Notes under the pieces: generated by a model | What the model saw: only the letters and a program-made list of their open reading frames with translations | Told to the model about the DNA's origin: nothing | Databases searched by the model: none | Shown: one piece after another, positions 22,083 through 43,345 of the stretch | How the letters are laid out: the number at the start of each line of letters is the position of its first letter | Position numbering within the stretch: the stretch's first letter is position 1 | Program-made: the position numbers and the translations under genes | Assembly (NCBI GenBank): GCA_040389985.1 | Contig: JAZJZH010000012.1 | Location: 35,027 to 99,026, forward strand | Reading direction: 5' to 3' | DNA: 64,000 bases | DNA from: Pseudomonadota bacterium | GTDB taxonomy: Bacteria; Pseudomonadota; Alphaproteobacteria; Sphingomonadales; Sphingomonadaceae

Positions 22083-22119
22083 TCCCCGTCTTTCCGGGGC
22101 GTTTCACGCCCGTGGAAAT

Positions 22120-22161
22120 CATGGTCTTCGCCGGTGACTGCACGCACCGGCGAAGATCATG
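22120..22161 (+). other. 17-bp-stem RNA hairpin between the receptor and GH68 genes, burying ATG 22159
   Basis: CATGGTCTTCGCCGGTG (22120..22136), loop ACTGCACG, CACCGGCGAAGATCATG (22145..22161). There are 16 Watson-Crick pairs plus one G-U, and no U-tract follows. Confidence 0.6.
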
Positions 22162-24263: not shown

Positions 24264-24308
24264 AGCGCCGATCGTCTTCTCACGGAGGATTTCGGCGCTC
24301 TATTTTTT
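24264..24308 (+). terminator. rho-independent terminator of the sugar operon
   Basis: Stem AGCGCCGA (24264..24271) / TCGGCGCT (24292..24299), followed by CTATTTTTTG. Confidence 0.6.
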
Positions 24309-24369
24309 GCAACGATCCGTTGAAGTCATTCTAGTGGATCGGTAGGGGCAAGACGAGCATAAGGCCGCC

Positions 24370-25539
24370 ATGGCGCGCCTGACCCCTTCTATCCTGCGGA
24401 GTGACCCATTTCTCTTGTGGCTGATCGGCACGGTGGGCGTCGCGTCGCTATTGCCTGCCAGCGGGCAGGCCGCGGGCTGGATCGATGTGCTGGCCGATAT
24501 CGCCGTCGCCCTGCTATTTTTTCTCCATGGCGCAAAGCTGTCGCGCGCGGCGATTCTCCAGGGGATAGGCAACTGGCGGTTGCATTTGCTGGTCTTTGCT
24601 TCGACCTACATGCTGTTCCCGGCTGTTGGCATCGCGCTGACGTCGCTGATGCGGGGCTGGGCCGATCCGGTCCTCATGTCGGGCCTGCTCTATCTGACTC
24701 TTTTGCCGTCCACGGTCCAATCGTCGATCGCCTTTACGGCGATGGCGGGCGGCAATGTCGCCGCCGCCCTGTGCAGCGCGTCGCTGTCCAATCTGATTGG
24801 CATTCTGCTGACGCCCCTGCTCGTCACTTTGACCCTGAATGTGGAGGGACATGGCGGCACGGCCACGCTGCATTCCGTTCAGAATATCGCCCTGCAACTG
24901 CTGGTCCCCTTCGTCGCGGGCCATGTATTGCGCCCCTATATCGGCGGCTTCATCGACCGGCATAAGGGGTTGTTGATGCCGGTGGATCGCGGCGCGATAT
25001 TATTGGTCGTCTATTCCGCTTTCAGCGCCGCCGTGGCGGGCGGCATATGGATGCAGGTCGGTGTGGGCGACTTGCTGGTGCTGCTGGGCCTCAGTGCGCT
25101 CGTCCTGGCTATCGTCATGAGCGTCAACATGGGCGTCGCGCGGCTGGCCGGATTGCCGCGCCAGGACGCGATCGTGCTGCTGTTCTGCGGGTCCAAGAAA
25201 AGCCTGGTATCCGGCGTGCCGATGGCCGGCGCTCTGTTCCCGCCCGCGCAAGTCGGCCTGCTGATCCTGCCGCTGATGATATTCCACCAGTTGCAACTGC
25301 TTGTCTGTGCCGCGCTGGCCGGGCGGTTCGCGCGGCAAACTGAAGCTCCCCTGGCCCCGGTCCTGACCTCAACGCCCATCCCCCCGCTGCCCCGCAGCGA
25401 AGCGGACATTCATCGGGCGGCGGACGCCATCGGCCTGCCGATCGACGCGGCCTGCATGCCCGGCGTGGTCGCGAACATGGCCTTGCTCGATCGTCATGCC
25501 GGCCTGTTGCTGGACCGTCATGAAAGTGACGCGCCATGA
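24370..25539 (+). CDS. bile-acid:sodium symporter (BASS/SBF-like) family transporter with a C-terminal GatC/AtzG-like (DUF4089-type) soluble extension
   Basis: Residues 1-~325 are a multi-TM SBF-like core (FLHGAKLSR, LLPSTVQSSIAFTAMAGGN, GSKKSLVSGVPMA, IFHQLQLLVCA). A Pro-rich linker follows, then the tail EADIHRAADAIGLPIDAACMPGVVANMALLDRHAGLLLD. Its stop overlaps the amidase start. Confidence 0.8.
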   Translation: MARLTPSILRSDPFLLWLIGTVGVASLLPASGQAAGWIDVLADIAVALLFFLHGAKLSRAAILQGIGNWRLHLLVFASTYMLFPAVGIALTSLMRGWADPVLMSGLLYLTLLPSTVQSSIAFTAMAGGNVAAALCSASLSNLIGILLTPLLVTLTLNVEGHGGTATLHSVQNIALQLLVPFVAGHVLRPYIGGFIDRHKGLLMPVDRGAILLVVYSAFSAAVAGGIWMQVGVGDLLVLLGLSALVLAIVMSVNMGVARLAGLPRQDAIVLLFCGSKKSLVSGVPMAGALFPPAQVGLLILPLMIFHQLQLLVCAALAGRFARQTEAPLAPVLTSTPIPPLPRSEADIHRAADAIGLPIDAACMPGVVANMALLDRHAGLLLDRHESDAP

Positions 25540-26876
25540 CCAGCGCCATGGCGATCGCCCAGTCCGTGCGCAGCGGCCAGCAATCCGCCACGCAGATACT
25601 CGATCAATGTTTGGCGGCGCTGGCGAAGAAAGCAGCGCCGCTCTGCGCCGTCACCCGCATCATGGCCGGACCGGCGCGCGTGGATGCGGAGAGGATCGAC
25701 GCGCTGGTCGCCGGCGGGCGCGATCCAGGGCCGCTGGCGGGCGTGCCCTTTGGCGTCAAGGATCTGTTCGACATCGCCGGCCTGCCCACCACCGCCGGGT
25801 CGCGCCTTTATGCCGATGCGCCGCCAGCGACGCAGGATGCAGAAGCGATCCATCGCCTGAAAGCCGCAGGCGCGGTGCTGGTGGCGAGCCTCAACATGGA
25901 CGAGTTCGCCTATGGCTTTGCAACCATCAACGCGCTGCATGGCACCACCCGCAATCCGCATGACCCGACCCGGCTGGCCGGTGGATCGTCGGGCGGATCG
26001 GCGGCGGTGGTTGCGGCTGGGCTGTTGCCTTTTTCGCTGGGGTCGGACACCAATGGGTCGATCCGGGTGCCGGCCAGCCTGACCGGTCTGTACGGCCTGA
26101 AGCCTACGCATGGCGATTTGCCGATGGCGGGGGTCTTTCCCTTCGCCGACAGTTTCGACGATATAGGCCCGTTCACCGCGTCGCTGGCCGACATGGTGAC
26201 GATCTGGGAAATACTGAGCGGGCGATCCGCCCAGCCGGGCGACACGCCGATCCGCCTCGCCCGGCTGGGCGGCCGCTTCGCGCAGAATAGCGACCCCGAC
26301 CAGAGCGCTGCGATCGACGCCATCGCGCCCCATGCGCCGGTCGTGACTGTGCCAGACATAGCCCGCGCGCGGTCCGCCGCCTTCCTGATTACGGCCAGCG
26401 AAGGCGGGCGACTGCACCGCACGGCGCTGGCGCGCGACGCCATGGCGTTCGATCCCCAAGTGCGCGACCGGCTGATCGCCGGCACCTTGTTGCCCGATGG
26501 CCTGTATGCAGAAGCGCAGGCGTTCCGCGCCAGTTTCCGCACCACGATGCTGAATCTGATCGCGCCTTATGACGTGCTGATCGCGCCCGCGACGCCCTGC
26601 ACCGCGCCGTCGATCGACGATCCCCGTATCCTGATCGACGGGGCGATGGCGCCGGCGCGCGCGGATCTGGGCATCCATACCCAGCCGATCAGCTTCACCG
26701 GCTTCCCTTCGCTCAGCATTCCACTCTATCGTCCGGGGCGGTTGCCATTGGGGCTGCAACTGATCGGCAAGCCGGGGGGCGAACCGACCTTGTTTCGCCT
26801 GGCCGCCATGTTGGAGCAACGGGGCATCACCGGCGTCACCATGCCGGGACATCAACATTCGGGGGACATTGCATGA
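25536..26876 (+). CDS. amidase-signature hydrolase, AtzE-like (GatA-related)
   Basis: Catalytic Lys context GVPFGVKDLFD. Signature GGSSGGSAAVVAAGLLPFSLGSDTNGSIRVPASLTGLYGLKPT. 446 aa. It lies directly behind an AtzG-like segment. Confidence 0.85.
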   Translation: MTSAMAIAQSVRSGQQSATQILDQCLAALAKKAAPLCAVTRIMAGPARVDAERIDALVAGGRDPGPLAGVPFGVKDLFDIAGLPTTAGSRLYADAPPATQDAEAIHRLKAAGAVLVASLNMDEFAYGFATINALHGTTRNPHDPTRLAGGSSGGSAAVVAAGLLPFSLGSDTNGSIRVPASLTGLYGLKPTHGDLPMAGVFPFADSFDDIGPFTASLADMVTIWEILSGRSAQPGDTPIRLARLGGRFAQNSDPDQSAAIDAIAPHAPVVTVPDIARARSAAFLITASEGGRLHRTALARDAMAFDPQVRDRLIAGTLLPDGLYAEAQAFRASFRTTMLNLIAPYDVLIAPATPCTAPSIDDPRILIDGAMAPARADLGIHTQPISFTGFPSLSIPLYRPGRLPLGLQLIGKPGGEPTLFRLAAMLEQRGITGVTMPGHQHSGDIA

Positions 26877-28240
26877 CGCCATCGCAGGTCGCGGATCACC
26901 ATCCGCCAGAAGCGCCGACAGGCAGGCTGGACCGCTATTTCGCGCTCAGCCAGCGCGGCACATCGGCGCGAACGGAGGTGTTGGCCGGGATCACCACTTT
27001 CCTGACGATGGCCTATATCGTGCTGGTCAATCCGGCGATCCTGGGTTCGACCGGCATGCCCTTCGCCTCAGTCGCGGCGGCGACCTGCTTCGCCGCCGCC
27101 TTCGCCTCGATCCTGATGGGCCTGACCGCCAATGTCCCGCTGGCGCTGGCGCCGGGCATGGGGTTGAACGCCTACTTCGCCTTCACCGTGGTCGGGCAGA
27201 TGGGCGTGCCCTGGCCGATTGCGCTGGGCTGCGTCTTCCTGTCGGGCGTCGCCTTCCTGATCCTGACGCTGACCGGCGTGCGGCAGTTGATCGTTGCGGT
27301 CATCCCCACCTATTTATTCGCAGCGGTGGCGGGCGGCATTGGCCTGTTCATTGGCTTTATCGGCCTGAAAAATGCAGGGATCGTGGGCGCGAACCCGGCG
27401 ACCTTCGTGGCGCTGGGCGACCTCAAAGCCCCCGGTGCGGCGCTGGCGCTGCTGGGCCTTTTGGTGATCGGCACGCTCAGTGTCTGGAATGTGCGCGGCG
27501 CAATGCTGATCGGCATTGTCGCCACCACGATCGTCGGCTGGCTGACGGGCATGGTGACGGTCAAGCCCGAACCCTATAGTCTGGACGCGCTGACCGGCAC
27601 GGCGTTTCAGCTGGACCTGCCCGGCGTGTTCGGCCTGACCGGCACCCATGGCCTCGGCCTGCTGGAAATCCTGTTCGTCTTCCTGTTCGTGGATCTGTTC
27701 GATAATATCGGGACGCTGGTGGCGGTGACCAAGCGCGCCGGGTTGATGGATGCAGCAGGAAAGATTCCGGGCCTCAACCGCATATTGATGACCGACGCGG
27801 TCGCCACCATCGTTGGGTCGATGGCGGGCACCAGCACCGTCACGTCCTATGTCGAAAGCGCGGCGGGCGTGCAGGCGGGCGGGCGCACCGGCCTGACCGC
27901 TATCGTCACCGGCATACTGTTCCTATTGACCATGTTCGTCGCCCCCTATGCGCAACTCGTGCCGCTGGCCGCGACCGCGCCTGCGCTCATCATCGTCGGC
28001 GGCCTTATGCTGGTGCCGCTGACCGAGGTGGAGTGGGAAGACCCTATGTCGGCGATCCCCGCCTTCCTCACCGTGGCGATGATCCCGCTCACCTTTTCGA
28101 TCGCCAATGGCCTGGCCTTTGGCATCACCGCCCATGCGGCGCTCAAGGCGCTGCGCGGCACGGCCACGCGCAAGGACTGGTTCCTGTTCCTGCTGGCCGG
28201 CCTTTTCGTCGTTCGCTTCGTCTGGATGGGAGCAGCCTGA
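26873..28240 (+). CDS. NCS2 family, AzgA-type adenine/guanine/hypoxanthine permease
   Basis: Typical N-terminus LDRYFALSQRGTSARTEVLAGITTFLTMAYIVLVNPAIL. About 13 TM helices. ATGA overlap upstream. Confidence 0.88.
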   Translation: MTPSQVADHHPPEAPTGRLDRYFALSQRGTSARTEVLAGITTFLTMAYIVLVNPAILGSTGMPFASVAAATCFAAAFASILMGLTANVPLALAPGMGLNAYFAFTVVGQMGVPWPIALGCVFLSGVAFLILTLTGVRQLIVAVIPTYLFAAVAGGIGLFIGFIGLKNAGIVGANPATFVALGDLKAPGAALALLGLLVIGTLSVWNVRGAMLIGIVATTIVGWLTGMVTVKPEPYSLDALTGTAFQLDLPGVFGLTGTHGLGLLEILFVFLFVDLFDNIGTLVAVTKRAGLMDAAGKIPGLNRILMTDAVATIVGSMAGTSTVTSYVESAAGVQAGGRTGLTAIVTGILFLLTMFVAPYAQLVPLAATAPALIIVGGLMLVPLTEVEWEDPMSAIPAFLTVAMIPLTFSIANGLAFGITAHAALKALRGTATRKDWFLFLLAGLFVVRFVWMGAA

Positions 28241-29154
28241 TGCGTTTTATTGCCCTCGCGCTGCTGGCGCTCGCCTTGCCCTCTCAAGCCCTGGCGCGCA
28301 AGGCGGACAGCACGCCGCGCACCGTTGTCATGACCGCCTTCCTGCCCGAATGGGATGCGCTGGAAAAATCCGTCGATAGGCCCAAGCGGCACCAGATCAA
28401 CGGCATGACCTTCCTGACCGGCAGGATGGCGGGCAAGCCGGTGCTGCTGATGCAGAGCGGCGTGTCGATGGTGAATGCCGCGATGAACACGCAACTGGTG
28501 CTGGATCGCTTTACCGTGCGGCGAATCGTCTTTTCCGGCATTGCCGGTGGGGTTGATCCCGGCCTGTCGATCGGCGACGTCATCGTGCCGCAGGATTGGG
28601 CGCAGTATCTGGAAGTCTCCTTCGCGCGCAAAAATGGCGACGGCTGGACCGTGCCCGAAGCGGTCGATGCCACAGCGCCGGCCAATTGGGGCATGATGTT
28701 CCCGCGCGGCGTGCGCATCGGCAATGCGAACGAGCCGGTGAAGCGCCATTATAGTTTCGCCGTCGATCCCGCCTTGCTGCAACTGGCGCAGAATGTGGCG
28801 GCCGACGTTAAATTGGAACGCTGCGTCCAAAATGAGGGTGCGGCCCCAGCGTGCCTGCCGCATGATCCCAAGATCGTGATCGGCGGCACTGGTGTCAGCG
28901 CGGGCGTCTTCGCAGACAATGCCGAGTTTCGCGACTATCTGAGCAGCGCATGGAAGGCGCGCGTGCTGGACATGGAAAGCGCAGCGGTGGCGCAGGTCGC
29001 CTATGCAAATGACGTCCCAGTCATCGTTTTCCGCAGCCTTTCCGACCTGGCCGGCGGCGATGCGGGCGAGAACCAGATGGTCGCCTTCATGGCCTTGGCC
29101 TCGGTCAACAGCGCCCATGTCGTGCGCGCCTTCGTCGCGGCGCTGCCCGACTGA
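28240..29154 (+). CDS. secreted PNP/MTAN-superfamily nucleosidase/phosphorylase-like protein
   Basis: Inner part of ORF 28033..29154. ATG 28240 (TGATG junction) gives the signal peptide MRFIALALLALALPSQALA. PNP_UDP_1-type blocks FSGIAGG and VLDMESAAVAQVA..VIVFRSLSDLAGG. Confidence 0.75.
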   Translation: MRFIALALLALALPSQALARKADSTPRTVVMTAFLPEWDALEKSVDRPKRHQINGMTFLTGRMAGKPVLLMQSGVSMVNAAMNTQLVLDRFTVRRIVFSGIAGGVDPGLSIGDVIVPQDWAQYLEVSFARKNGDGWTVPEAVDATAPANWGMMFPRGVRIGNANEPVKRHYSFAVDPALLQLAQNVAADVKLERCVQNEGAAPACLPHDPKIVIGGTGVSAGVFADNAEFRDYLSSAWKARVLDMESAAVAQVAYANDVPVIVFRSLSDLAGGDAGENQMVAFMALASVNSAHVVRAFVAALPD

Positions 29155-30740
29155 TGGCGCTTTCGACCGTATCTGGCCGGCACGGCATGGTCACGGCACC
29201 GCATCATCTGGCGAGCGCGGCGGGGCTGGACGTGCTGCGCGAGGGCGGCAACGCGGTGGAGGCGTGCGTCGCGGTCGCGGCGACGCTGGCAGTGGTCTAT
29301 CCGCACATGACCGGCATCGGCGGCGATGGCTTCTGGCTGATCCACCCTGGTCCGGGTTCCGATGTTGTAAGTATTCACGGTTGCGGCGGCGCGGCGGCCA
29401 AGGCGGACCTGTCGCTTTACGCAGGCCTCGACATGATCCCGAACCGCGGACCGCTGGCCGCCAATACGGTAGCGGGCACGATATCGGGCTGGGCAGCGGC
29501 CCTGGACAGCATTTGGGGCGACATGCCGCTCGCACGGTTGCTGCGCGACGCCATCGGCCACGCGCGGACGGGCGTGGCTGTCACGGCGGGCGGCGCGGGA
29601 ATCGCGGCGGCCAAGGGCGACGAATTGCGGGGGCAATCCGGCGCCTATGCGACGACCTTCGAACCCGAAGGTCGCCCGCTGCGCGAGGGCGATCTGCTGC
29701 GCCAGCCTGCGCTGGCCGACACGCTGGAACGGCTGGCGACGGAAGGTCTGGACAACTTCTACACAGGAACATTGGCCACTGACATCGCGGCTGATCTGGA
29801 AGCGCTGGGCAGTCCGCTGACCGCAGCAGATATGGCCGCGCACGACGCCTTTATAGCGACACCGTTGCACACACGGATCAGTGGCGCGACCCTCTATAAC
29901 AGCGCGCCGCCGACCCAGGGCTTCGCCTCACTGCTGATCCTCGCCCTGTTTGACCGGCTGCGCGCTGGGAGCCCCGATGGGTTCGACCATGTGCATGGGC
30001 TGGTCGAAGCGACCAAACAGGCCTTCCTGATCCGCGACATGCATGTCGGCGACCCGGCGTTCCATGATTATGACTGGCAGGGATTGCTGGACGATCCCAC
30101 CGCGCTGGACGCGCTGGCAGCGAAAGTCGATCCGGCCCGAGCCCTCCCATGGCCGCAGCCGCCGCAATGGGGTGACACCTGCTGGTTCGCGGCCGCCGAT
30201 GGCGACGGGCGCGTCGTATCCTGCATCCAGTCCACCTATTTCGAGTTCGGATCGGGCCTGGTGCTGCCGCGCACCGGCATCACCTGGCAGAATCGCGGCA
30301 GCAGCTTCCGATTGGCGCAGAGCGGCTGGAATGCGCTCAAGCCCGGTCGCAAGCCTTTCCACACACTCAATCCCGCGTTCGCCTGTTTCGAGGATGGCCG
30401 GGTCATGGCCTATGGCACAATGGGCGGCGAGGGCCAGCCGCAGACGCAGGCGGCCTTGTTCACGCGCTACGCCCGCTATGGCATGGACTTGCAGGAGGCG
30501 ATCAGTGCGCCGCGCTGGCTGCTGGGGCGGACCTGGGGCGACCCATCGACCACGCTCAAGCTGGAGGACGGGTTCGACGAGAGCCTTTACGCTGAACTCG
30601 CGGCCGCCGGTCATGATGTCGAACGAGTCGGGCCGATAACTGCGACCATGGGTCATGCCGGGGCGATTCTGCGTCATCCTGACGGCAGGCTGGACGGCGC
30701 GACCGACCCGCGTAGCGACGGCGCGGTGGCTGCATGCTGA
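29154..30740 (+). CDS. gamma-glutamyltransferase-fold Ntn hydrolase (candidate HpxW-like oxamate amidohydrolase)
   Basis: GGT-family N-terminus GMVTAPHHLASAAGLDVLREGGNAVEACVAVAATLAVVYPHMTGIGGDGFWL, and APPTQGF around the expected autoprocessing Thr. No signal peptide. The specific function is inferred from context only. Confidence 0.75.
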   Translation: MALSTVSGRHGMVTAPHHLASAAGLDVLREGGNAVEACVAVAATLAVVYPHMTGIGGDGFWLIHPGPGSDVVSIHGCGGAAAKADLSLYAGLDMIPNRGPLAANTVAGTISGWAAALDSIWGDMPLARLLRDAIGHARTGVAVTAGGAGIAAAKGDELRGQSGAYATTFEPEGRPLREGDLLRQPALADTLERLATEGLDNFYTGTLATDIAADLEALGSPLTAADMAAHDAFIATPLHTRISGATLYNSAPPTQGFASLLILALFDRLRAGSPDGFDHVHGLVEATKQAFLIRDMHVGDPAFHDYDWQGLLDDPTALDALAAKVDPARALPWPQPPQWGDTCWFAAADGDGRVVSCIQSTYFEFGSGLVLPRTGITWQNRGSSFRLAQSGWNALKPGRKPFHTLNPAFACFEDGRVMAYGTMGGEGQPQTQAALFTRYARYGMDLQEAISAPRWLLGRTWGDPSTTLKLEDGFDESLYAELAAAGHDVERVGPITATMGHAGAILRHPDGRLDGATDPRSDGAVAAC

Positions 30741-31969
30741 GCGGCGGAGCGAGAGCGGTCGCGCGCTGCGATGCGCTGGGCATAGCGCCCTATAGCGACA
30801 TGGCGGACGGCCTGTATCGTGGCTATCTGACGCCGGCCTATGCCCAAGCACAAGCGACGCTGGCCGGGTGGATGGAGGAGGCGGGGATGGGTGTGCGGCG
30901 CGACCCGGCCGCCAACCTGATCGGCCGCTATGAGGGGCTGGACCCGGCCGCGCCCGCGCTGCTGATCGGCAGCCATCTCGACAGCGTGAAGGATGCGGGG
31001 CGCTATGACGGGCCGCTGGGCATCATGCTGGGCGTGGAGGCGGTCGCGGCGCTGCACCGCGCCGGGCGACGCCTGCCCTTCCCGATCGAGGTGATCGCCT
31101 TTGGCGACGAGGAGGGATCGCGCTTTCCCGCCGCAATGCTGACCAGCCGGGCGGTGGCGGGTACGCTGGTGGCTGAGGCGCTGGGGCTGCGCGATGGGAA
31201 CGGCGTTGCATTGGCGGATGCAGGTGTCGATGTCGGTGCCTATCTCTCCGCAGCGCGTGCGCCTGCCACCACCCTCGCCTATCTCGAAGCGCATATCGAA
31301 CAGGGTCCGGTACTGGAGGCGCAGGGTTTGGCGCTCGGCACCGTTACCGGCATCGCGGCGCAACTGCGCTATCAGGTGACGCTGCGGGGCATGGCAGGCC
31401 ATGCCGGCACGACGTCGATGCCCTTGCGGCGCGACGCGCTCGCGGGCGCGGCGGAAGCGATGCTGGCGATCGAGGGACTGGCGCGCGATGCCGCATCCGA
31501 TCTCGTGGCCACGGTGGGGCGGATCGAGGCGCTGCCCGGTGCGGCCAATGTCATCCCCGGCAAAGTGCGCTTCACCATCGACGTGCGGTCTGGCGATGCG
31601 GCTCGGCGCGATAGCGCCGCGGAGGCGATGATCGACGCCATCACCGCCATCGCCGGCCGCCGCCGGCTGGATGTGGCAACGACGCTGGTCCACGACTTGC
31701 CCGCCAGTCCGTGCGATCCTTTGTTGATGACCCTGATGGACGCCGCCATCGCGGGGACGGGGCAGCAACCCTTCCGGCTTGTGTCGGGCGCGGGCCATGA
31801 TGCCATGGTGATGGCGGCGCTGTGCCCGACGGCCATGCTGTTCATTCGTTGCAAGGACGGGATCAGCCATAATCCTGCCGAACATGTCGATCCGGCCGAT
31901 GCGGAACGCGCGTTACACGCCATGCTGGGCTTCATAGAGAGATTGGGAGAGTGTGTTGTTGCCGCTTGA
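30734..31969 (+). CDS. allC: allantoate amidohydrolase (M20 family Zn/Mn hydrolase)
   Basis: Motifs LAGWMEEAGMGVRRDPAANLIGRYEG, IGSHLDSVKDAGRYDGPLGI, AFGDEEGSRF, GAGHDAM. It lies in the purine operon. Confidence 0.8.
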   Translation: MLSGGARAVARCDALGIAPYSDMADGLYRGYLTPAYAQAQATLAGWMEEAGMGVRRDPAANLIGRYEGLDPAAPALLIGSHLDSVKDAGRYDGPLGIMLGVEAVAALHRAGRRLPFPIEVIAFGDEEGSRFPAAMLTSRAVAGTLVAEALGLRDGNGVALADAGVDVGAYLSAARAPATTLAYLEAHIEQGPVLEAQGLALGTVTGIAAQLRYQVTLRGMAGHAGTTSMPLRRDALAGAAEAMLAIEGLARDAASDLVATVGRIEALPGAANVIPGKVRFTIDVRSGDAARRDSAAEAMIDAITAIAGRRRLDVATTLVHDLPASPCDPLLMTLMDAAIAGTGQQPFRLVSGAGHDAMVMAALCPTAMLFIRCKDGISHNPAEHVDPADAERALHAMLGFIERLGECVVAA

Positions 31970-33194
31970 TCCGAACTTATTTGGCGACATCGACCCACCC
32001 CAGCGGCTGCTGATGGGGCCGGGGCCGGTTAATGCCCATCCCCGCGTGCTGCGCGCCATGTCCGCCGATCTGCTGGGCCAGTTCGACCCGGAAATGACCG
32101 GCTATATGAACCAGGTCATGGCGCTCTATCGTCCGATCTTCGACACGCAGAATCAATGGACGATGCTGGTCGATGGCACTGCGCGGGCGGGGATCGAAGC
32201 GGCGCTGGTCAGCCTGGTCGCGCCGGGCGACACCGTGCTGGTGGTCAATTTCGGCCGCTTCGGCCTGCTGCTCACGGAAATATTGGGCCGCATCGGCGCG
32301 CAGGTCGAAACGGTGGAGGCGTCCTGGGGCGACGTCGTGCCGATGGACGCCATCGCCGCCGCGATCGAACGGGTGCAGCCCAAGGTGGTCGCGACCATCC
32401 ATGGCGATACCTCCACCACCATGACGCAACCGCTCGACGGGTTGGGCGCGCTGTGCGCGGCGGCGGGGGCGCTGCTCTATGTCGATGCGACCGCGACGAT
32501 CGGCGGCATGGCAATTGCCGCCGATCGCTGGGGCGCGGACATCGTCACCGGCGGCTTGCAGAAATGCCTCGGCGGGCCTTCCGGCTCGGCGCCGATCACC
32601 ATCTCCGACAAGGCGGCGGCGTTGATCCAGGGCCGCAAGCGGGTCGAAGCGGGCATCCGCCGCGACGACATCAGCGACGGCGCGGGACCGCGCATCAGCT
32701 CCAACTATTTCGACCTCGCCATGATTATGGATTATTGGAGCGACAAGCGTCTCAATCATCATACCGAGGCGACGTCCATGCTCTACGCCGCGCGCGAATG
32801 TGCGCGGATCATGCTGGGCGAAGGGCTGGAGGCACGCTACGCCCGCCACGAAGCCGCCGGGCGCGCCATGACCGCCGGGCTGCGCGCCATGGGGCTGACC
32901 GTCTTTGGCGACGACGCGCATCGCATGACCAATGTGACCGGCGTCTTCATGCCTCAGGGTGTAGACGGCGAGCGGGTCCGCACGATGATGCGCGATGCGT
33001 TCGAGATCGAGATCGGCACTGCCTTTGGTCCGTTGCAGGGCCGCATCTGGCGGATCGGCGCGATGGGCTATAACGCAATGAAGCATAAGGTTCTGATCAC
33101 GCTCGGCGCGCTGGAGGCCTGCCTGCGGCGGGAGGGATTTGCGCTGCCCGCGGGCGAGGCTGTCAACGCCGCGATGGCGACGTGGGACGCATGA
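31953..33194 (+). CDS. class-V pyridoxal-phosphate aminotransferase (PucG/HpxJ-like ureidoglycine-glyoxylate or Ser/Ala-glyoxylate type)
   Basis: Motifs MGPGPVNAHPRVLRAM and GDTSTT. PLP-Lys context GGLQKCLGGPSGSAP. The start is one of GTG 31953, TTG 31956 or TTG 31959, behind GGGAGAG. Confidence 0.8.
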   Translation: MLLPLDPNLFGDIDPPQRLLMGPGPVNAHPRVLRAMSADLLGQFDPEMTGYMNQVMALYRPIFDTQNQWTMLVDGTARAGIEAALVSLVAPGDTVLVVNFGRFGLLLTEILGRIGAQVETVEASWGDVVPMDAIAAAIERVQPKVVATIHGDTSTTMTQPLDGLGALCAAAGALLYVDATATIGGMAIAADRWGADIVTGGLQKCLGGPSGSAPITISDKAAALIQGRKRVEAGIRRDDISDGAGPRISSNYFDLAMIMDYWSDKRLNHHTEATSMLYAARECARIMLGEGLEARYARHEAAGRAMTAGLRAMGLTVFGDDAHRMTNVTGVFMPQGVDGERVRTMMRDAFEIEIGTAFGPLQGRIWRIGAMGYNAMKHKVLITLGALEACLRREGFALPAGEAVNAAMATWDA

Positions 33195-34066
33195 CCCCGC
33201 CCCGCGACCTCATAGGCTATGGCGCGTCGCCGCCCGATCCGCGCTGGCCCGGCGGCGCGCGGGTCGCGGTGCAGTGCGTCGTCAATTATGAGGAAGGCGC
33301 GGAAAACAGCGTCCTCAACGGCGACAAGGGCTCCGAAGCCTTTCTGTCCGAAATGGTCGGCGCGCAGAGCCATCCCGACCGGGCGATGGCGATGGAAAGC
33401 CTGTATGAATATGGCGCGCGCGTCGGTTTCTGGCGGCTGCACCGGATCTTCACGCAGCGCGGCCTGCCGGTCACGGTCTTTGGCGTAGCGAAAGCGATGG
33501 CGATGAACCCCGCAGCGGTCGAGGCGATGCTGGCGGCGGACTGGGAAATCGCCAGTCACGGCCTGAAATGGATCGACTATCAAACCGTGCCCGAAGACGT
33601 CGAGCGCGCGCATATTACCGAAGCGATCGCGCTGCACACCAGCCTGACCGGCAGCCGCCCCTTGGGCTGGTATCAAGGCCGCACATCGCCCAACACCGCC
33701 CGGCTGATGCGGGAGGAAGGCGGCTTCGTCTATGATGCGGACAGCTATGCCGACGACCTACCCTATTATGATCGCGGGCAGTTGATCGTCCCCTACACGC
33801 TGGACGCCAACGACATGAAGATGGTCGCTTATAACGGCTTTACCGAGGGCGAGCAGTTCTTCCGCTATCTGTGCGACACGTTCGATCAGTTGCGGGAGGA
33901 AGGTGGGCGGATGATGTCGGTCGGCCTGCATGGCCGCATCGCCGGTCGCCCTGCGCGCGCGCGCGCGCTGGCCCGTTTCCTCGATCATGTCATCGCGTCC
34001 GGCGACGCTTGGGTCGCGCGCCGCATCGATATCGCCCGCCACTGGATGGAGGTTCACCCCGCATGA
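33191..34066 (+). CDS. puuE: allantoinase, PuuE type (polysaccharide-deacetylase fold)
   Basis: Motifs RDLIGYGASPPDPRWPGGARVAVQCVVNYEEGAE, YEYGARVGFWR, HGLKWIDY. I prefer ATG 33191 (ATGA overlap) over GTG 33182. Confidence 0.88.
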   Translation: MTPPRDLIGYGASPPDPRWPGGARVAVQCVVNYEEGAENSVLNGDKGSEAFLSEMVGAQSHPDRAMAMESLYEYGARVGFWRLHRIFTQRGLPVTVFGVAKAMAMNPAAVEAMLAADWEIASHGLKWIDYQTVPEDVERAHITEAIALHTSLTGSRPLGWYQGRTSPNTARLMREEGGFVYDADSYADDLPYYDRGQLIVPYTLDANDMKMVAYNGFTEGEQFFRYLCDTFDQLREEGGRMMSVGLHGRIAGRPARARALARFLDHVIASGDAWVARRIDIARHWMEVHPA

Positions 34067-34443
34067 CGATAGACGATCCCATATTGCTCGCCGAAATCAC
34101 CGCGGCCTTCGCCGCCTATGAGCGCGCGTTGATGGCGGACGACGTGCCCGCCATGGATGCGCTGTTCCATGATGCGCCGACCACCAACCGCTATGGCGTG
34201 GGCGAGGTGCTTTACGGCATCGAGGAGATACGGGCGTTCCGCAAGGGTCGCGGCGGATCGCCGCAGCGCACATTGGGGAAGGTCGCAATCACCGTCTATG
34301 GCGACGCTTTCGCCACCGCCGACGCCGAATTTTTCCGTGAGAATAGCGACCGGCGCGGTCGCCAGACGCAAAGCTGGGTCAAGTTCGCCGATGGCTGGAA
34401 AGTCGTGTCGGCGCATGTCTCGCTGGAGGGGAACACGCATTGA
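34063..34443 (+). CDS. NTF2-like DUF3225 / AtzH-like protein
   Basis: 3' part of ORF 33871..34443. ATG 34063 overlaps the puuE stop. 126 aa: MTIDDPILLAEITAAFAAYERALMADDVPAMDALF... RGRQTQSWVKFADGWKVVSAHVS, a SnoaL/NTF2-like pattern as in AtzH-like proteins. Confidence 0.65.
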   Translation: MTIDDPILLAEITAAFAAYERALMADDVPAMDALFHDAPTTNRYGVGEVLYGIEEIRAFRKGRGGSPQRTLGKVAITVYGDAFATADAEFFRENSDRRGRQTQSWVKFADGWKVVSAHVSLEGNTH

Positions 34444-34895
34444 CCGGCCCCCAACAAGCGTTGTTCGAACATAGCCCTTGGATAGAGGCGCGGGCCGATG
34501 CGCGCCCGTCGTCCGGGGACCGCTGGGCGGACCTGATGGCGGTGGTCCGCAGCGCCAGCGGCGAGGAGCAATTGGCCCTGATCCGCGCCCATCCTGAACT
34601 GGCGGGCAAGGCGGCGATTGACCGGACGCTGACCGACGCATCGGCGGCGGAACAGGCGTCGGCCGGGCTGGATCGGCTGACGCCGCAAGACTATGCGCAC
34701 TTCCATGCGCTCAACACCGCCTACCGGGAGCGCTTCGGCTTCCCCTTCATCATCTGCGTGCGGCTGACCGACAAGGCGGGGATATTGGCGGCCATGGAGC
34801 AGCGTCTGGCGCATGAGCGGGACGAGGAGATCGCGACCGCGATCGAGCAGATTGGGCAGATCGTCCGGCTACGGTTGGGGGATATGGAGGCATGA
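34440..34895 (+). CDS. uraD: 2-oxo-4-hydroxy-4-carboxy-5-ureidoimidazoline (OHCU) decarboxylase
   Basis: Motifs FEHSPWIEARA, LIRAHPELAGK, RFGFPFIICVR. TTG start overlapping the upstream stop (TTGA). The N-terminus is about 10 residues shorter than I would expect for the family. Confidence 0.85.
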   Translation: MTGPQQALFEHSPWIEARADARPSSGDRWADLMAVVRSASGEEQLALIRAHPELAGKAAIDRTLTDASAAEQASAGLDRLTPQDYAHFHALNTAYRERFGFPFIICVRLTDKAGILAAMEQRLAHERDEEIATAIEQIGQIVRLRLGDMEA

Positions 34896-36310
34896 TCGGC
34901 CTGCCCGCCCTGGAAGCGGACCTCGCTCGCCAATTGTCGCTGATCGGTTTCGGCGGCGCGGACTGGACCCGGCCGCGCGCCCATCCCGACGGTCACGTCC
35001 ATGACGTCGTGATCGTGGGCGGGGGGCAGAGCGGGCTTGCCGCGGCCTTCGGCCTGCTCCGCGAGCGGGTGTCCAACATCCTGGTCATCGACGAAAGCCC
35101 GGCGGGTCTGGAGGGGCCATGGGACAGCTATGCGCGGATGATTACGCTGCGCACGCCCAAGATGCTGAACCCGATCGACTTCGGCGTTCCCGCCCTCACC
35201 TATCGCGCCTGGTGGGAGGCGCAGCACGGGAGGGCAGGCTGGGACGCGGTCGACAAGATCGCGCGCGGCGACTGGATGGCCTATCTGCGCTGGTATCGGC
35301 GGGTGCTGGCGCTGCCGGTGCGCAACGATACGCGCCTGACGCTGATCGAGCCGATCGGGGACGGGCTGCACCGGTTGCATCTGGACGGGCAAGCGCCACT
35401 ACTGGCGCGCAAGGTCGTGCTGGCGACCGGCATCCAGGGCGGCGGGCAGTGGCATACCCCCGCGATGGTCCGCGAGGCCCTGCCCCGCCACCTCTACGCC
35501 CACACCAGCGAACCAATCGACTATGCCGCGCTGGCGGGCAAGCGGATCGGCATATTGGGTGGCGGTGCGTCGGCCTTCGACAATGCCCATGCGGCGATGC
35601 GCCTGGGCGTGGCGGAGGCGCATGTTTTCATCCGGCGCAAGAGCCTGCCGCGGATCAACCCCATTCGCTTCATGGAGCGGGTCGGCTTCACTGGCCGCTA
35701 TCCTGCGCTCGATGACGCGACCAAATATCGGGTGATGGCGAGTTTCCTGGGCCATAACCAGCCGCCCACTAACGACACCTTCGATCGCGCGGCAGCCTGG
35801 CCGGGTTTCGCGCTGCATCTAGGCGCGCCATGGCTAGATGTGAGACAGCGAGATGGACAGGTCTGCGTGAACACGCCGCAGGGCGAACAGATGTTCGATT
35901 TCGTGGTCCTATCAACTGGCCTCATCAGCGATCCCGGCCTGCGCCCCGAATTGCGGCTAGTGGCGGACGGGATCGCGCGCTGGGCCGATCGCTTCACCCC
36001 GCCGCCGGGCCAAGGCAACGCGGTGATAGACGCGCATCCCTATCTTGGCCCCGGCTTTCAACTGCTGCCGCGCGACGCGGCGGGCGACGCTGCGCTGCAC
36101 GGCCTGTTCGCCTTCAATTATTCGGCGCTCATCAGCCTAGGCCTCTCCGCCTCGGCGCTGTCGGGGTTGCAGACCGCCCTGCCCCGGCTGGTCCGCGGCG
36201 TCACCGACCAGCTGTTTCTGGACGATGGGGAGGCGCTGGTCGCCGACCTGATCGCCTATGACGAAGCGGAGTTTATCGGCCAATGGCCGCGCCAGGAGGC
36301 GGCCGAATGA
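34892..36310 (+). CDS. FAD/NAD(P)-binding two-dinucleotide-domain oxidoreductase (candidate HpyO-like urate hydroxylase)
   Basis: Two dinucleotide-binding motifs: VVIVGGGQSGLAAAFGL (FAD) and IGILGGGASAFDNA (NAD(P)H). It sits between uraD and uraH with ATGA overlaps on both sides. No other urate oxidase is present in the window. Confidence 0.6.
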   Translation: MIGLPALEADLARQLSLIGFGGADWTRPRAHPDGHVHDVVIVGGGQSGLAAAFGLLRERVSNILVIDESPAGLEGPWDSYARMITLRTPKMLNPIDFGVPALTYRAWWEAQHGRAGWDAVDKIARGDWMAYLRWYRRVLALPVRNDTRLTLIEPIGDGLHRLHLDGQAPLLARKVVLATGIQGGGQWHTPAMVREALPRHLYAHTSEPIDYAALAGKRIGILGGGASAFDNAHAAMRLGVAEAHVFIRRKSLPRINPIRFMERVGFTGRYPALDDATKYRVMASFLGHNQPPTNDTFDRAAAWPGFALHLGAPWLDVRQRDGQVCVNTPQGEQMFDFVVLSTGLISDPGLRPELRLVADGIARWADRFTPPPGQGNAVIDAHPYLGPGFQLLPRDAAGDAALHGLFAFNYSALISLGLSASALSGLQTALPRLVRGVTDQLFLDDGEALVADLIAYDEAEFIGQWPRQEAAE

Positions 36311-36636
36311 CCAGCCTGTCCACCCATGTTCTCGACACCGCCCATGGCTGCCCCGCCGAAGGCATGGCGATCCAATTGCTGTCAGCGGACGGCGCGCTAT
36401 TGTTCGCAGGCGCGACCAATGCGGACGGCCGCTGCCCCGGCCTGCCGCCAATCCAGCCCGGCCGCTATCAGCTGACATTCGCGGTCGCGGCCTATTATCG
36501 GGTGCGCGGGACCGCGCTGGCTGACCCGCCTTTCCTTGACGTTATAGCTGTCCATTTCGGTGTCTCAGACGATGGCCATTATCATGTCCCGTTGCTGCTA
36601 TCGCCCTATGGCTATTCAACCTATCGGGGGAGTTGA
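36307..36636 (+). CDS. uraH: 5-hydroxyisourate hydrolase (transthyretin-like)
   Basis: N-terminal LSTHVLDTAHGCPA. HVPLLLSPYGYSTYRGS with the C-terminal YRGS signature. ATG 36307 overlaps the upstream stop. Confidence 0.92.
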   Translation: MTSLSTHVLDTAHGCPAEGMAIQLLSADGALLFAGATNADGRCPGLPPIQPGRYQLTFAVAAYYRVRGTALADPPFLDVIAVHFGVSDDGHYHVPLLLSPYGYSTYRGS

Positions 36637-36637
36637 G

Positions 36638-38060
<1,423 letters not shown>

Positions 38061-38068
<8 letters not shown>

Positions 38069-40370
38069 GGGCGATCCCGGCTTGGCGGCGCTGGCGAAGC
38101 CCTCCAACCCGCATGACAGCGCGGCGCTGCATGTCAGCGGTCGCGCCCACTATGCCGACGACCTGCCGGAACCGGCCGCCATGCTGCACCTGGCTTTCGG
38201 CCAGAGCAAGGAGGCCCATGCGCGGATTACGGCCATCGATCTGACCGCCGTGCGCGCCGCGCCGGGGGTGGTGGCGGTCTATACCGCCATCGACATAAGC
38301 GGCACCAATGACGTCAGCCCGGTCGCGGGCGACGACCGGCTGCTGGCGGACGGCGAGGTCATCTGCATCGGCCAGCCGATCTTCCTGGTGGCTGCGACCA
38401 GCCAGCGCGCCGCGCGGCAGGCGGCGCGGCTGGGCGAGATCGCTTACGCCCGCTTGCCCGCGCATCTGACGATCGCCGATGCCCGTGCCGCTAGATCACT
38501 GATCGAACCGACCCAGCGCATGGCGCGGGGCGATGCCGCAGCCGCGCTGGCGCAGGCACCCCGGCGCCTGACGGGCGGTTTCGACATGGGCGGACAGGAT
38601 CATTTTTATCTGGAGGGCCAGGTCGCGATCGCGACGCCGGGTGAGGATCGACAGATGCATGTCCTGTCGTCCACCCAGCATCCCAGCGAAGTGCAGCATC
38701 TGGTCGCGCATATGCTCTGTCGCCGTTCCGCCGACGTGACGGTCGAGGTCCGGCGCATGGGCGGCGCGTTTGGGGGGAAGGAGACGCAGGCCGCTCTCTT
38801 CGCCGCTGCCGCTGCTCTGGTGGCGGACAAGACGGGACGCCCCGCCAAGTTCCGCTGCGACCGCGACGACGATATGGTGATGACTGGCAAGCGGCATGAC
38901 TTCCGGGTCGATTATGAGACGGGCTTTGACGCACAGGGCCGCGTACTGGCGCTCAAGCTGCGGCTCGCTTCCCGCTGCGGCGCGACCGTCGACCTCTCCC
39001 CCGCGATCAACGACCGGGCGATGTTCCATGCTGACAATTGCTATCACCTCCCCGCGATCGAGATTATTTCGGAACGGCTGAAAACCCACACAGTCTCCGC
39101 AACAGCCTTTCGCGGCTTTGGCGGGCCGCAGGGGATGCTGGCGATCGAACGGGTCATGGATGATGTCGCCGCGCATCTGGGCGTCGATCCGATCGAAGTG
39201 CGGATCGCCAATCTCTACGGCCCCGGCCGCGACATCACCCCCTATGACATGCCGCTCACAGACAATATCGCGCCGCAACTGATCGCCCGGCTGCGCGCGG
39301 ACGCCTGCTATGATGCAAGGCGGCAGGCGATCGCCGCGTTCAACACGCGCAATCCGGTGCTGAAGAAGGGGATCGCGCTGACCCCGGTCAAGTTCGGCAT
39401 CAGCTTCACCACCACCCACCTTAATCAGGCCGGCGCGCTGGTCCATGTCTATGCCGATGGCAGCATCCAGATCAACCATGGCGGCACGGAGATGGGCCAG
39501 GGCCTGTATATCAAGGTGGCGCAGGTGGTGGCGGACGTGTTCGCCGTGCCGGTGGGGCAGGTGCGGATCACCGCGACGCGGACGGACAAGGTGCCCAATA
39601 CCTCCGCGACCGCGGCGTCATCGGGCGCGGATTTGAATGGCATGGCGGCCTACAACGCCGCGATGACGATCCGGGACCGGCTGACCGACTTTGCCGCGCG
39701 CAGCTTCGGTTGCGACGCCGATGATGTGCGGTTCACGCAGGACGGCGTGCAGGTCGGCGCGGACCGGCTGCGCTTTGGCGACCTTTGCCGCAAGGCGCAT
39801 ATGGGCCGCGTTTCGCTGTCCTCGACCGGCTATTACGCCACGCCCGACATCGCCTATGACCGCGCCGCGCATAAGGGCCGCCCCTTCTATTATTTCGCTT
39901 ACGGCGCGGCGGTGGCGGAGGTCGCGATCGACACGCTGACTGGCGAGCATAGAGTGCTGGCGGTCGATATATTGCACGATGTCGGCAAGTCGTTGAACCC
40001 GGTCATCGATATCGGCCAGATCGAGGGCGGCTTCCTCCAGGGGCAGGGCTGGCTCACCACTGAAGAACTGGTCTGGGATGACAAGGGCCGGCTGCTGACC
40101 CATTCGCCCGCAACCTACAAGATCCCGACCGCGTCGGACCGGCCGCGCCATCTGTCGATCCGACTGTGGGACGGGGAGAATGTGCAGCCGACGATCAATC
40201 GGTCCAAGGCGGTGGGCGAGCCGCCCTTCATGCTGGCGATTTCGGTCTTTTCCGCGCTTCATCAGGCGATCGCCGCCGTCGCGCCCGACAAGCGCGCTTT
40301 GCCCCCGCTGGATGCGCCAGCAACGCCGGAGCGGATTTTGCGCGCGATTAAGGATCATCGCGCCGCATGA
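38061..40370 (+). CDS. xdhB: xanthine dehydrogenase molybdopterin-binding large subunit
   Basis: ATG 38061 (8-nt overlap with xdhA). Motifs RRMGGAFGGKETQ, TAFRGFGGPQG, GGTEMGQGL, AVGEPPF. Confidence 0.93.
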
Positions 40371-41287
40371 GCGAATGGCTGGCATGGATGAAGGAGGTGG
40401 CGTCGAGCGAACCGGCTGCGCTGGTCAGCGTACTGGCGAGCGAGGGGTCGGCGCCGCGGGGCGCGGGCACGCGGATGCTGGTAAGCGCAAACCGGCTGTT
40501 CGGGACGATCGGCGGGGGTCAATTGGAGCACCGCGCGATCGAACAGGCGCGGACCATATTGGCGCTGCCGCCGGGTAGCTGGCGGGTGCAGGATTATCCG
40601 CTGGGACCGTTACTGGGCCAATGTTGCGGCGGGCGGGTGCGGTTGCTGATCGAGCATGTCGATCCCGCTGCGCTCGACTGGCTGGCTGATGCGGCAGAGG
40701 AGCGCGTGCTGGTGTCCATGCTCTCGCCCGGCCGGATCGAGCGCCATGTCAGTGCGAAGGCCGCGCCCACCGCCCTGTCGGCGCGGGGCGACCGGCCGCG
40801 GGAGGGCGCGACCTTCGCCGAGATGATCGGCCAGCGCCGCCGCCCGCTCTATCTGTTCGGCGCCGGCCATGTCGGCCAGGCGATCGCCCGCCATGCCCAG
40901 GCGCTACCGCTACGCCTCGCCTGGTTCGACACGCGGCCCTTGTTCGAGACGATCGACGGCGTCGCCATCGTGCCGGAGGATGCGATCGCGCAATGCGTCG
41001 CAGAAGCGCCAGATGACGCCGCGATGTTGATCCTGACCCATGACCATGCGCTCGACTATCGGCTGACCCGCGCGGCGCTGGAGCGGGGACCGATCGCCTT
41101 TGTGGGCCTCATCGGATCGCAGACCAAGCGTGCGCGCTTCCATAGTCGGCTGGAGCGCGACGGCGTTTCGCAAACGGCGCGCGCGCGGCTGACCTGCCCG
41201 ATCGGCATCAGTGGCGTGGCCGGCAAGGAACCGGATGTGATCGCCATCGCTGCGTTGGCCCAATTGCTGCAACTGGAGCGGCCATGA
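40367..41287 (+). CDS. xdhC: xanthine dehydrogenase accessory/maturation protein XdhC
   Basis: Motifs GSAPRGAGTRMLV, GTIGGGQLE, QCCGG, LYLFGAGHVG. ATGA overlap upstream. Confidence 0.9.
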   Translation: MSEWLAWMKEVASSEPAALVSVLASEGSAPRGAGTRMLVSANRLFGTIGGGQLEHRAIEQARTILALPPGSWRVQDYPLGPLLGQCCGGRVRLLIEHVDPAALDWLADAAEERVLVSMLSPGRIERHVSAKAAPTALSARGDRPREGATFAEMIGQRRRPLYLFGAGHVGQAIARHAQALPLRLAWFDTRPLFETIDGVAIVPEDAIAQCVAEAPDDAAMLILTHDHALDYRLTRAALERGPIAFVGLIGSQTKRARFHSRLERDGVSQTARARLTCPIGISGVAGKEPDVIAIAALAQLLQLERP

Positions 41288-42564: not shown

Positions 42565-42574
42565 TGGAAAGACG

Positions 42575-43270: not shown

Positions 43271-43345
43271 TGCGCGCATTGCGGCAACAAGCCGTCGCCG
43301 GGATTGCATTTGCGGGCGGCGGCGTGCCCGCCTAGAGTCGGGGCC

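Follow-up and report, generated by a model that had tools for sequence, protein, structure and literature searches.

An AtzG-like domain fused to the C terminus of an SBF_like transporter heads a purine-catabolism operon in Sphingomonadales

Introduction

In the Pseudomonas AtzEG enzyme, the amidase AtzE has an obligate partner, AtzG, without which it is insoluble; AtzG is a GatC-derived, non-catalytic small subunit (PMC6219798). In a 64,000-nucleotide stretch of a genome of the Sphingomonadaceae (assembly GCA_040389985.1, contig JAZJZH010000012.1, positions 35,027 to 99,026; hereafter the window, whose own numbering is used below), an AtzE-family amidase gene directly follows, and overlaps, an open reading frame (ORF) whose product begins as a transporter of the BASS family and ends in an AtzG-like tail. 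The tail is here a domain of a 389-aa membrane protein, and not a free protein of ~55-70 aa. The locus thus raises the question of whether the small subunit of an enzyme has truly been joined to a membrane carrier and, if so, what this means for the amidase. An earlier note, made from the letters of the window alone, had offered three explanations: a real fusion that docks the amidase at the cytoplasmic face of the transporter and creates an uptake-coupled hydrolysis metabolon, a lost stop codon or an indel, and non-canonical initiation of a separate peptide. We found that the fusion is genuine and anciently fixed, not an indel, and we consider it likely that the amidase is tethered to the carrier through the fused tail. 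Beyond the earlier note, the analysis brought out the purine/oxalurate operon around the fusion, the short form of the tail, split and single-TM variants, and a second, unfused arrangement of an SBF_like carrier with AtzG, AtzE, and AtzH.

The fusion is conserved among sphingomonads

The 389-aa ORF at 24370..25539 and its quoted sequence were as the earlier note had described them. Its multi-transmembrane (TM) SBF-like core, which the note had drawn to residue ~325, was recovered by a Pfam scan as SBF_like (PF13593) on residues 12-322 (3e-96; 322.8 bits against a cutoff of 25). The Pro-rich linker (TEAPLAPVLTSTPIPPLPRS) and the soluble tail (EADIHRAADAIGLPIDAACMPGVVANMALLDRHAGLLLDRHESDAP) that follow the core both match the sequence quoted there, and the overlap with the amidase gene is present, the TGA stop of the fused gene lying at 25537-25539 and the ATG of the amidase at 25536-25538. 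A codon listing of the linker showed no ATG, GTG, or TTG in frame, again as claimed, and three CTG codons and one ATC codon. The out-of-frame TGA at 25341-25343, from which the note had derived a possible lost stop, does exist but is without significance.

Each of the 120 closest homologs (374-420 aa; 63-96% identity) aligns over 93-100% of the query and has the tail in frame, which is far more than chance would give. Counted as protein clusters at 90% identity, the homolog set comprises at least 120 members with the fusion from at least four genera; its sources are Sphingobium, Sphingomonas, Novosphingobium, and Altererythrobacter, together with many metagenome-assembled genomes (MAGs). Isolate genomes carrying the fused gene include those of S. 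fontiphilum, N. indicum, N. mangrovi, N. sediminis, and Sphingobium sp. V4. Moreover, the identical protein with the same neighboring genes was found in an independent sequencing run (SRR26324623).

At the DNA level, we compared nine fused loci, one from the window and the others from eight further genomes that stem from different projects. In all nine, the fused gene runs into atzE by an ATGA or GTGA overlap; in seven, the linker had no canonical in-frame start. In alignments of 18 (A1) and 77 sequences, the tail was conserved and the linker varied in both length and sequence. Substitutions in the tail showed an excess at third codon positions (458/453/777 for the three positions). The real fusion proposed earlier is therefore supported at the genetic and evolutionary level. 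The alignment with orthologous loci that the earlier note had suggested showed that relatives keep the in-frame tail, and a separate stop and start were seen in a single split locus (L009, see below).

The tail belongs to the AtzG-like family

Scanned alone, the tail matched the AtzG-like family PF13318 with 26.9 bits (cutoff, 24; E 6e-6) over model positions 2-36 of 50; within the full protein, the match covered residues 348-381 with 22.3 bits, slightly under the same cutoff. Among 30 diverse homologous tails, 25 matched PF13318 (E ≤ 0.01) and none matched any other family. A tails-only profile (A5) was then aligned by hhalign with a profile of stand-alone AtzG-like sequences (A6), built from ORFs that immediately precede AtzE in other lineages. 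The two matched with a probability of 99.0% and E 5.8e-18 over 42 columns, tail residues 5-46 being paired with AtzG residues 6-47. The similarity to the AtzG-like family that the earlier reading presupposed is thus detectable both by PF13318 and by profile comparison. A hidden Markov model made from the stand-alone sequences only found the tail at E 1.1e-12 and, over the 64-kb window, no second AtzG-like sequence, so that the amidase has no other local AtzG. No NCBIfam model matched the fused protein or its tail.

AtzG proteins were found to occur in two forms. The long form, with a C-terminal LPD..EPA..FEP segment (Pfam model positions ~37-50), is found in cyanobacteria, Acetobacteraceae, Zymomonas, and pADP-1, and the short form, to which the fused tails belong, ends after helix 2. 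Stand-alone AtzG of sphingomonads is also short (L016, L030, L033, L035, L049, L092, and L093), indicating that the truncation is older than the fusion. The pADP-1 AtzG, a divergent long-form member, has 26% identity to the tail in the alignment. The invariant tail residues in the 18-sequence alignment are P341, A351, C362, G365, V366, N369, L372, L373, and H376.

The transporter core has an ASBT-type fold with a predicted cytoplasmic C terminus

An AlphaFold2 (AF2) model based on the 77-sequence alignment (predicted local distance difference test [pLDDT], 85.9) has an ASBT-type fold of 10 TM helices, with discontinuous TM4 (residues 100-111/117-125) and TM9 (264-273/279-289). In this model, TM10 reaches residue 334, the linker is short, with pLDDT dipping to ~69, and the tail forms two helices (344-353 and 360-380) at pLDDT 94-95. 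Foldseek gave TM-scores of 0.83-0.86 to ASBT_Yf and ASBT_NM (7cyg, 4n7w, and 3zux). Structures of SbtA-SbtB, in which SbtA has a related fold, were among the fold matches, and the same search yielded PDB 8oyg, ASBT_NM crystallized with pantoate.

With the helix boundaries of the model, the predicted loops hold 7 Lys and Arg residues inside versus 1 outside, and the means over 77 homologs are 9.0 and 2.1, respectively. SLC10A7 has been modelled N-in/C-in (PMC8521665). A C-in topology places the tail in the cytoplasm, and the amidase, which lacks a signal peptide, is made there too; for the tail, this location is a prediction of the model and the charge distribution. Within the SBF_like subfamily, the searched literature (PMC7190670 and PMC11711720) contained no member with a known substrate.

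The amidase partner lies in an HPX-type purine operon

The downstream gene encodes an AtzE-family amidohydrolase, with equivalog-level matches to NF006631 (542 bits; cutoff, 461) and TIGR02715 (532 bits; cutoff, 426). Its product matched the AtzE structure 6c62_A (7e-99; 44% identity), GatA was among its PDB and NCBIfam matches, and its Ser-cisSer-Lys triad is intact (K75 in VKD, S151 in GGSSGGS, and S175 in NGSIRVP). It is the only amidase-signature gene in the 64-kb window, in which neither AtzD nor AtzF was found.

The fused gene and atzE are the first genes of a long co-directional cluster (Table 1), and many consecutive genes of the island from 26873 to 44362 have 4-nt or other short overlaps, such as the ATGA at 34063 that joins the puuE stop to the hpxZ start. 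The order fused gene-atzE-permease-PNP-HpxW-like-allantoate amidohydrolase-aminotransferase was kept in all fused loci, and the NCS2 permease gene directly followed atzE in all related loci. The GGT-like protein fell under the cutoff of the true-GGT equivalog (339 versus 358); its best PDB match was 5hft (1e-88 and 1e-71 for two chains), which we take to be the HpxW entry. The best PDB match of the aminotransferase was 3nnk (1.3e-152), and PucG (3isl) matched at 8e-129. We identified no HIU hydrolase (transthyretin-like) in the annotated part of the window; two of the unfused loci described below (L092 and L093) have one.

The operon is thus an HPX-type purine/urate-to-oxalurate island. The Klebsiella HPX pathway with its hpxWXYZ oxalurate branch has the same gene set (PMC3560190), and Esquirol et al. 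found atzG-atzE-atzH associated with ggt and allantoate amidohydrolase genes (PMC6219798). Given this operon context, the amidase is, by analogy, probably an oxalurate-branch enzyme equivalent to HpxX/HpxY, rather than one with a cyanuric-acid-type substrate. HpxY has been named both "oxalurate amidohydrolase" and "oxamate carbamoyltransferase" in one paper (PMC12625717).

A side observation concerns the PNP_UDP_1 gene. A 373-aa ORF from the GTG at 28033 overlaps the permease gene, and a 304-aa version from 28240, which is the gene call in locus L001, starts with MRFIALALLALALPSQALA. From its sequence, this signal-peptide-like N terminus suggests that the product, a nucleosidase or phosphorylase of a purine-uptake operon, is exported.

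Table 1. Features of the fused gene, its upstream region, and the purine island, in window coordinates
Feature	Position	Strand	Basis or remark
Conserved ~55-nt upstream element, TTTTTGCAACGATCCGT-N5-TCATT-N4-T.GATCG.TAGGGG	24303..24358	+	Alignment A7
Fused gene: SBF_like transporter, linker, and AtzG-like tail	24370..25539	+	ATG start, 389-aa ORF
Transporter core, residues 12-322: 10-TM BASS/ASBT fold, SBF_like (SLC10A7/YfeH-type) subfamily	24403..25335	+	PF13593
Linker, residues 323-340	25336..25389	+	Pro/Ala-rich, variable in length and sequence
AtzG-like (HpxX-like, GatC-derived) tail, short form, residues 341-389	25390..25536	+	PF13318
ATGA stop/start overlap, fused gene to atzE	25536..25539	+	Translational coupling
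AtzE-family (HpxY-like) amidase-signature amidohydrolase, 446 aa	25536..26876	+	NF006631, TIGR02715
NCS2 (xanthine/uracil family) permease	26873..28240	+	PF00860, 4e-43
PNP_UDP_1 nucleosidase/phosphorylase-like protein, signal-peptide-like N terminus MRFIALALLALALPSQALA	28240..29154	+	PF01048, 1e-40
GGT-family Ntn-hydrolase, HpxW-like (candidate oxamate amidohydrolase), no signal peptide	29154..30740	+	PF01019, 2e-124
Allantoate amidohydrolase	30734..31969	+	NF006775, 576 bits vs cutoff 479
Ureidoglycine-glyoxylate aminotransferase-like protein (HpxJ/PucG-like), oxalurate-making enzyme	31953..33194	+	PDB 3nnk, 3isl
Allantoinase PuuE	33182..34066	+	TIGR03212, 490 bits vs cutoff 425
AtzH-like/HpxZ oxalurate catabolism protein	34063..34443	+	PF11533, 1.6e-48; NF033625, 148 bits vs 135
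Rest of purine island	34440..44362	+	Pfam and NCBIfam matches
OHCU decarboxylase	start 34440	+	TIGR03164
Flavin monooxygenase	start 34892	+	Pfam
XdhA/B/C	starts 36560, 37926, 40367	+	Pfam
Guanine deaminase	start 41284	+	NF006679
Adenosine deaminase	start 43304	+	PF00962

A second, unfused architecture links the same families

In three genomes, the same families occur unfused in the order atzG-atzE-atzH-SBF_like: a second locus of S. rhizovicinum (L035, 5786-8727), a TARA marine scaffold (L092, 4103-7014), and S. boeckii (L093, 4102-6987). These genes sit in urate-catabolism clusters that encode, in this order, a flavin monooxygenase, (HIU hydrolase), an AtzG-like ORF of 57-66 aa, AtzE, an AtzH-like protein, and an SBF_like carrier of 328-338 aa. 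The transporter start overlaps the atzH stop at the DNA level in L092 and L093 (GTGA/ATGA), and the listed ORF coordinates of the two genes also overlap in L035. S. rhizovicinum carries a fused version too (P0009). In a tree of transporter cores, the three carriers fall into an unfused paralog clade, outside the fused clade. SBF_like carriers are therefore tied to AtzG/E/H in two different architectures. We regard this recurrence as the best reason to think that the connection is functional rather than a chance result of gene order.

Distribution and history of the fusion

We sorted 80 AtzE loci of the genome collection by architecture. The transporter core and AtzG were found in one reading frame in Sphingomonadales only; in Acetobacteraceae, Xanthomonadaceae, ~45 cyanobacteria, Planctomycetota, and Acidobacteriota, there was a stand-alone AtzG-like ORF or none detectable. 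A stand-alone DUF4089 gene upstream of AtzE, which the earlier note had given as the usual arrangement, was thus borne out in most other lineages, and these stand-alone genes are likewise translationally coupled to the AtzE gene. In the AtzE tree, the fused loci group in one clade, within which L009, L010, and L011 are nested. L009, from a Sphingobium MAG (5833-6004), is a natural split: its transporter ends in ...RYRRQMEAG followed by TGA (5833-5835), and an ATG 2 nt past this stop opens a 54-aa AtzG ORF that overlaps atzE. Loss of the stop codon is likely to be the evolutionary origin of the fusion.

An exhaustive profile search against 1.84 billion representatives (50% identity) gave 271 matches at E ≤ 1e-3, of which the best 147 were classified. 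Of these 147, 127 were plain stand-alone short peptides (median, 62 aa), 7 were fused proteins or fragments thereof, and 5-6 had a single hydrophobic helix and an Arg-rich stretch before the AtzG core, numbers that do not reflect abundances because, at 50% identity, the fused proteins collapse into very few clusters and the short peptides split into many. The single-helix forms, 79-114 aa in length (P0148, L085:4001-4282; P0133, L087:969-1271; P0161, L088:343-687; also P0144 and P0168), lie immediately before AtzE, and no transporter is nearby. P0148 looks like a real gene form: it has an AGGAGG Shine-Dalgarno sequence ~8 nt upstream and an extension with a coding-type GC pattern, and it overlaps an AtzE gene, downstream of which come the same permease, PNP, and GGT genes. 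In the alignment, the single helices are colinear with TM10 of the fused proteins and resemble it to varying degrees, and by this measure the single-helix proteins look like membrane-anchored relics that remained once TM1-9 had been lost. A single ancient fusion that was occasionally split or reduced later on would be the simplest history.

Three giant proteins among the matches (P0121, P0185, and P0199; 2078-5636 aa) were rejected as AtzG fusions, since they were repeat-driven false positives in which a 13-15-residue stretch of the profile (positions 17-31) matched 8-22 times. Separately, a 142-aa fragment from the same search (P0245) has an AtzG-like core, a linker of ~30 aa, and an AtzE-type N terminus (...GDPGVLAGVPY); it could stem from a natural single-chain fusion of AtzG and AtzE that was cut off by the end of a contig.

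Proposed mechanism and alternative explanations

Tethering of the amidase to the carrier via the AtzG-like tail is the reading that we consider likely, and we grade the details of its mechanism lower. The 10-TM SBF_like carrier would insert with its C terminus inside and present the short-form tail on a flexible linker of ~20 residues. At the ATGA overlap, a ribosome finishing the membrane-bound tail would reinitiate on atzE, so that the amidase would assemble on the tail at the membrane in a 1:1 stoichiometry; one amidase dimer could bridge two carriers, by analogy with AtzE2G2. The tethered amidase would work together with HpxZ and the HpxW-like oxamate amidohydrolase, in a route that would lead from purines via urate, allantoin, allantoate, and ureidoglycine to oxalurate. 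Carriers of the BASS family accept small organic anions, and the anions of the pathway are therefore the obvious candidates for transport. The carrier would most likely move a small anion of the oxalurate branch, namely oxalurate, oxamate, oxalate, or glyoxylate, and may serve either for end-product export or for ureide uptake. What points to a transport metabolon here is genetic, i.e., the fusion, the translational coupling, and the second operonic linkage; from these we infer the physical docking of the amidase, and uptake-coupled hydrolysis, as proposed in the earlier note, would be one use of it.

A stronger version is put forward only tentatively and by analogy. The carrier and the amidase may form an obligate membrane complex, with two carriers bridged by an AtzE dimer, in which an SLC10A7-type carrier would be mechanistically coupled to the hydrolysis of purine-pathway ureido acids. 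Either the solute would then be taken up and hydrolyzed at once (vectorial metabolism), or an end-product, e.g., oxamate or oxalate, would be exported directly. If true, the orphan SBF_like/SLC10A7 family would gain its first substrate class, and a new route to a transport metabolon would come to light, in which an obligate small subunit is fused to a carrier.

Several observations weigh against a functional tether. Oxalurate is made inside the cell, so that the need for coupled uptake is not obvious. Two of the loci nested within the fused clade, L010 and L011, have a soluble stand-alone AtzG with unrelated upstream genes and no adjacent transporter; since they work with soluble AtzG, tethering is not essential. 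Other unfused SBF_like paralogs (P0386, P0308, and P0379) lie in unrelated contexts, which rules out a general linkage of all unfused paralogs to AtzGEH and confines it to the subclade of L035, L092, and L093. The identity of the tail is also concerned: it is without the LPD..EPA..FEP segment of long-form AtzG, and neither the tail (phmmer) nor the tails-only profile (hmmsearch) found the crystallized AtzG (6c62 chain C) at E ≤ 10. These PDB sequence searches returned no GatC chain either, only chance ferredoxin-like matches, and the link to AtzG was therefore made via Pfam and profile-profile comparison.

Another reading is a real but functionally neutral fusion. Here, adjacent co-expressed genes would have merged by stop loss, leaving an anchored amidase without channeling or regulation and a carrier whose own job is only loosely related, e.g., waste export. 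The split locus L009 differs from the fused ones merely by a stop, 2 nt, and an ATG, the relatives L010 and L011 do with a soluble AtzG and no adjacent transporter, and several lineages have only a TM10-like relic of the transporter left. Stand-alone AtzG proteins moreover tolerate N-terminal extensions (median, 12 aa; up to ~50), and an N-terminal fusion would thus be easily accommodated. We nevertheless regard neutrality as somewhat unlikely, because the fusion has been retained, with strong conservation of both core and tail, in at least 120 protein clusters (90% identity) and four genera, and because the second link between SBF_like and AtzG/E/H arose in another gene order and another paralog clade. 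It is improbable, in turn, that the functional AtzG is a free peptide, released without a stable tether by the non-canonical internal initiation that the earlier note had considered or by proteolysis of the linker. The linker is unstructured and Pro/Ala-rich and holds near-cognate CTG and ATC codons, relatives use stand-alone peptides of the same short form, and L007 even has a GTG immediately before the conserved Pro. However, a start codon is conserved nowhere: a conserved internal start at the residue preceding the invariant P341 was ruled out, this residue being L, I, V, M, or P, and the lack of any canonical start in seven of the nine loci likewise makes a free peptide unlikely. There is also no conserved Shine-Dalgarno-like motif in the 30 nt upstream, a promoter/terminator scan across the fused gene found no promoter-like site or terminator between core and tail, and the derived forms retain the TM10-like membrane helix.

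Regulatory coupling, in which the bound amidase gates or senses for the carrier or the reverse, as in SbtA-SbtB or AmtB-GlnK, appears quite improbable. SbtA, with its related fold, does bind a cytoplasmic regulator, the AF2 model places the tail with high pLDDT (94-95), and the substrate of the carrier may differ from that of the enzyme; yet a regulatory domain is absent, the known role of AtzG is structural (PMC6219798), and AtzE is not known to be allosteric. As for an assembly or sequencing indel that joined two genes in the window, its probability is practically negligible. A single-base change would restore the TGA at 25341-25343, and L009 has its stop at the equivalent place, but this artefact is rejected by the identical protein in the independent run and by the same fusion in all 120 closest homologs and in eight other genomes, and a separate gene would have no start codon available. 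Tethering of the amidase via the fused tail remains our preferred reading.

Relation to known systems

The 1-carboxybiuret hydrolase AtzG-AtzE of Pseudomonas sp. ADP (6c62/6c6g; atzDGEHF) likewise has a GatC-derived peptide encoded immediately upstream of an amidase-signature enzyme, and an AtzH-like gene is also present in the operon of the window. In the window, however, a 10-TM transporter carries the peptide as its C-terminal domain, whereas the pADP-1 AtzG is a free 68-aa protein; the tail is also short, without the last ~15-20 residues, and the context is that of purine/oxalurate rather than cyanuric acid catabolism, with no AtzD or AtzF. The Klebsiella hpxWXYZ system has in common with the window the AtzG-like module, the AtzE-family amidase, HpxZ, a GGT-family protein, allantoate amidohydrolase, and ureidoglycine-glyoxylate aminotransferase. 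There, the small subunit is free, the cluster contains an ABC transporter, and the gene order differs, whereas the subunit in the window is fused to an SBF_like carrier; the biochemical role of Klebsiella HpxXY has been assigned by deduction. The association of atzG/atzE-type genes with this branch in Enterobacteriaceae was noted earlier (PMC6219798 and PMC3560190).

GatC-GatA of GatCAB is the evolutionary source of AtzG/AtzE, and there too a small helical subunit stabilizes an amidase-signature subunit (PMC6219798). Unlike GatCAB, which has no membrane association, the system in the window has no GatB and no tRNA-dependent function. With SLC10A7/SBF_like carriers and with ASBT_NM and ASBT_Yf, the core shares the family, the ASBT fold, the 10 TM helices, and the predicted N-in/C-in topology, but no SBF_like carrier has been described with a C-terminal enzyme-docking domain. 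SbtA-SbtB and transporter-enzyme Rosetta-stone fusions embody the same idea of a cytoplasmic protein held at a secondary transporter. In the window, by contrast with SbtA-SbtB and metabolons, the tether is the obligate small subunit of the enzyme, and not an enzyme or a regulator, and the catalytic subunit is added through translational coupling. We found no published description of a transporter-AtzG fusion in the limited searchable literature, in which no paper mentioned DUF4089. All the module families are known; the novelty lies in their covalent joining, in the conservation of this fusion, in its reduced forms, and in the unfused operon that exists in parallel.

The covalent and operonic link to one purine-catabolism module provides a lead on the substrate of the orphan SBF_like/SLC10A7 carriers, which occur from bacteria to humans. 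Defects of human SLC10A7 lead to a skeletal and glycosylation disorder. The role of AtzE/AtzG/AtzH is poorly defined outside herbicide degraders, and here these proteins are found within a complete urate-to-oxalurate operon. Recruitment of an enzyme to a transporter through its obligate GatC-like subunit would be an unusual way of building a complex, for which related genomes supply natural controls in the form of fused, split, TM10-anchor-only, and soluble variants. The finding also uncovers an annotation gap, as databases at present label the fused proteins only "bile acid:sodium symporter."

A conserved upstream element and the flanking region

The end of the conserved ~55-nt element upstream of the fused gene (Table 1) lies 12-25 nt before the start codon. 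Alignment A7 (12 loci) showed invariant TTTTTGCA, TCATT, and G/T positions, whether the version was fused, split, single-TM, or stand-alone; besides the window, the element was found in L004-L012, L015, L085, and L087. It holds the inverted hexamers CGATCC and GGATCG. Rfam assigned no family to the upstream region, with only a sub-threshold chance match to CRISPR-DR, and the element contained no match to the sigma-70 consensus. Gene callers sometimes translate it, which gives rise to N-terminal extensions of the type "...FFCND..WIGRG..." in P0054, P0095, P0134, P0155, P0157, and P0205. Judged from this conservation, the element is a candidate operator, promoter, or leader of the purine operon.

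Upstream of the operon, positions 19440-24206 hold an unrelated sugar module that encodes a TonB-dependent receptor, a GH68 levansucrase/invertase-like protein, and a ROK kinase. This module may be terminated at ~24264-24310, where an imperfect hairpin precedes a T-run.

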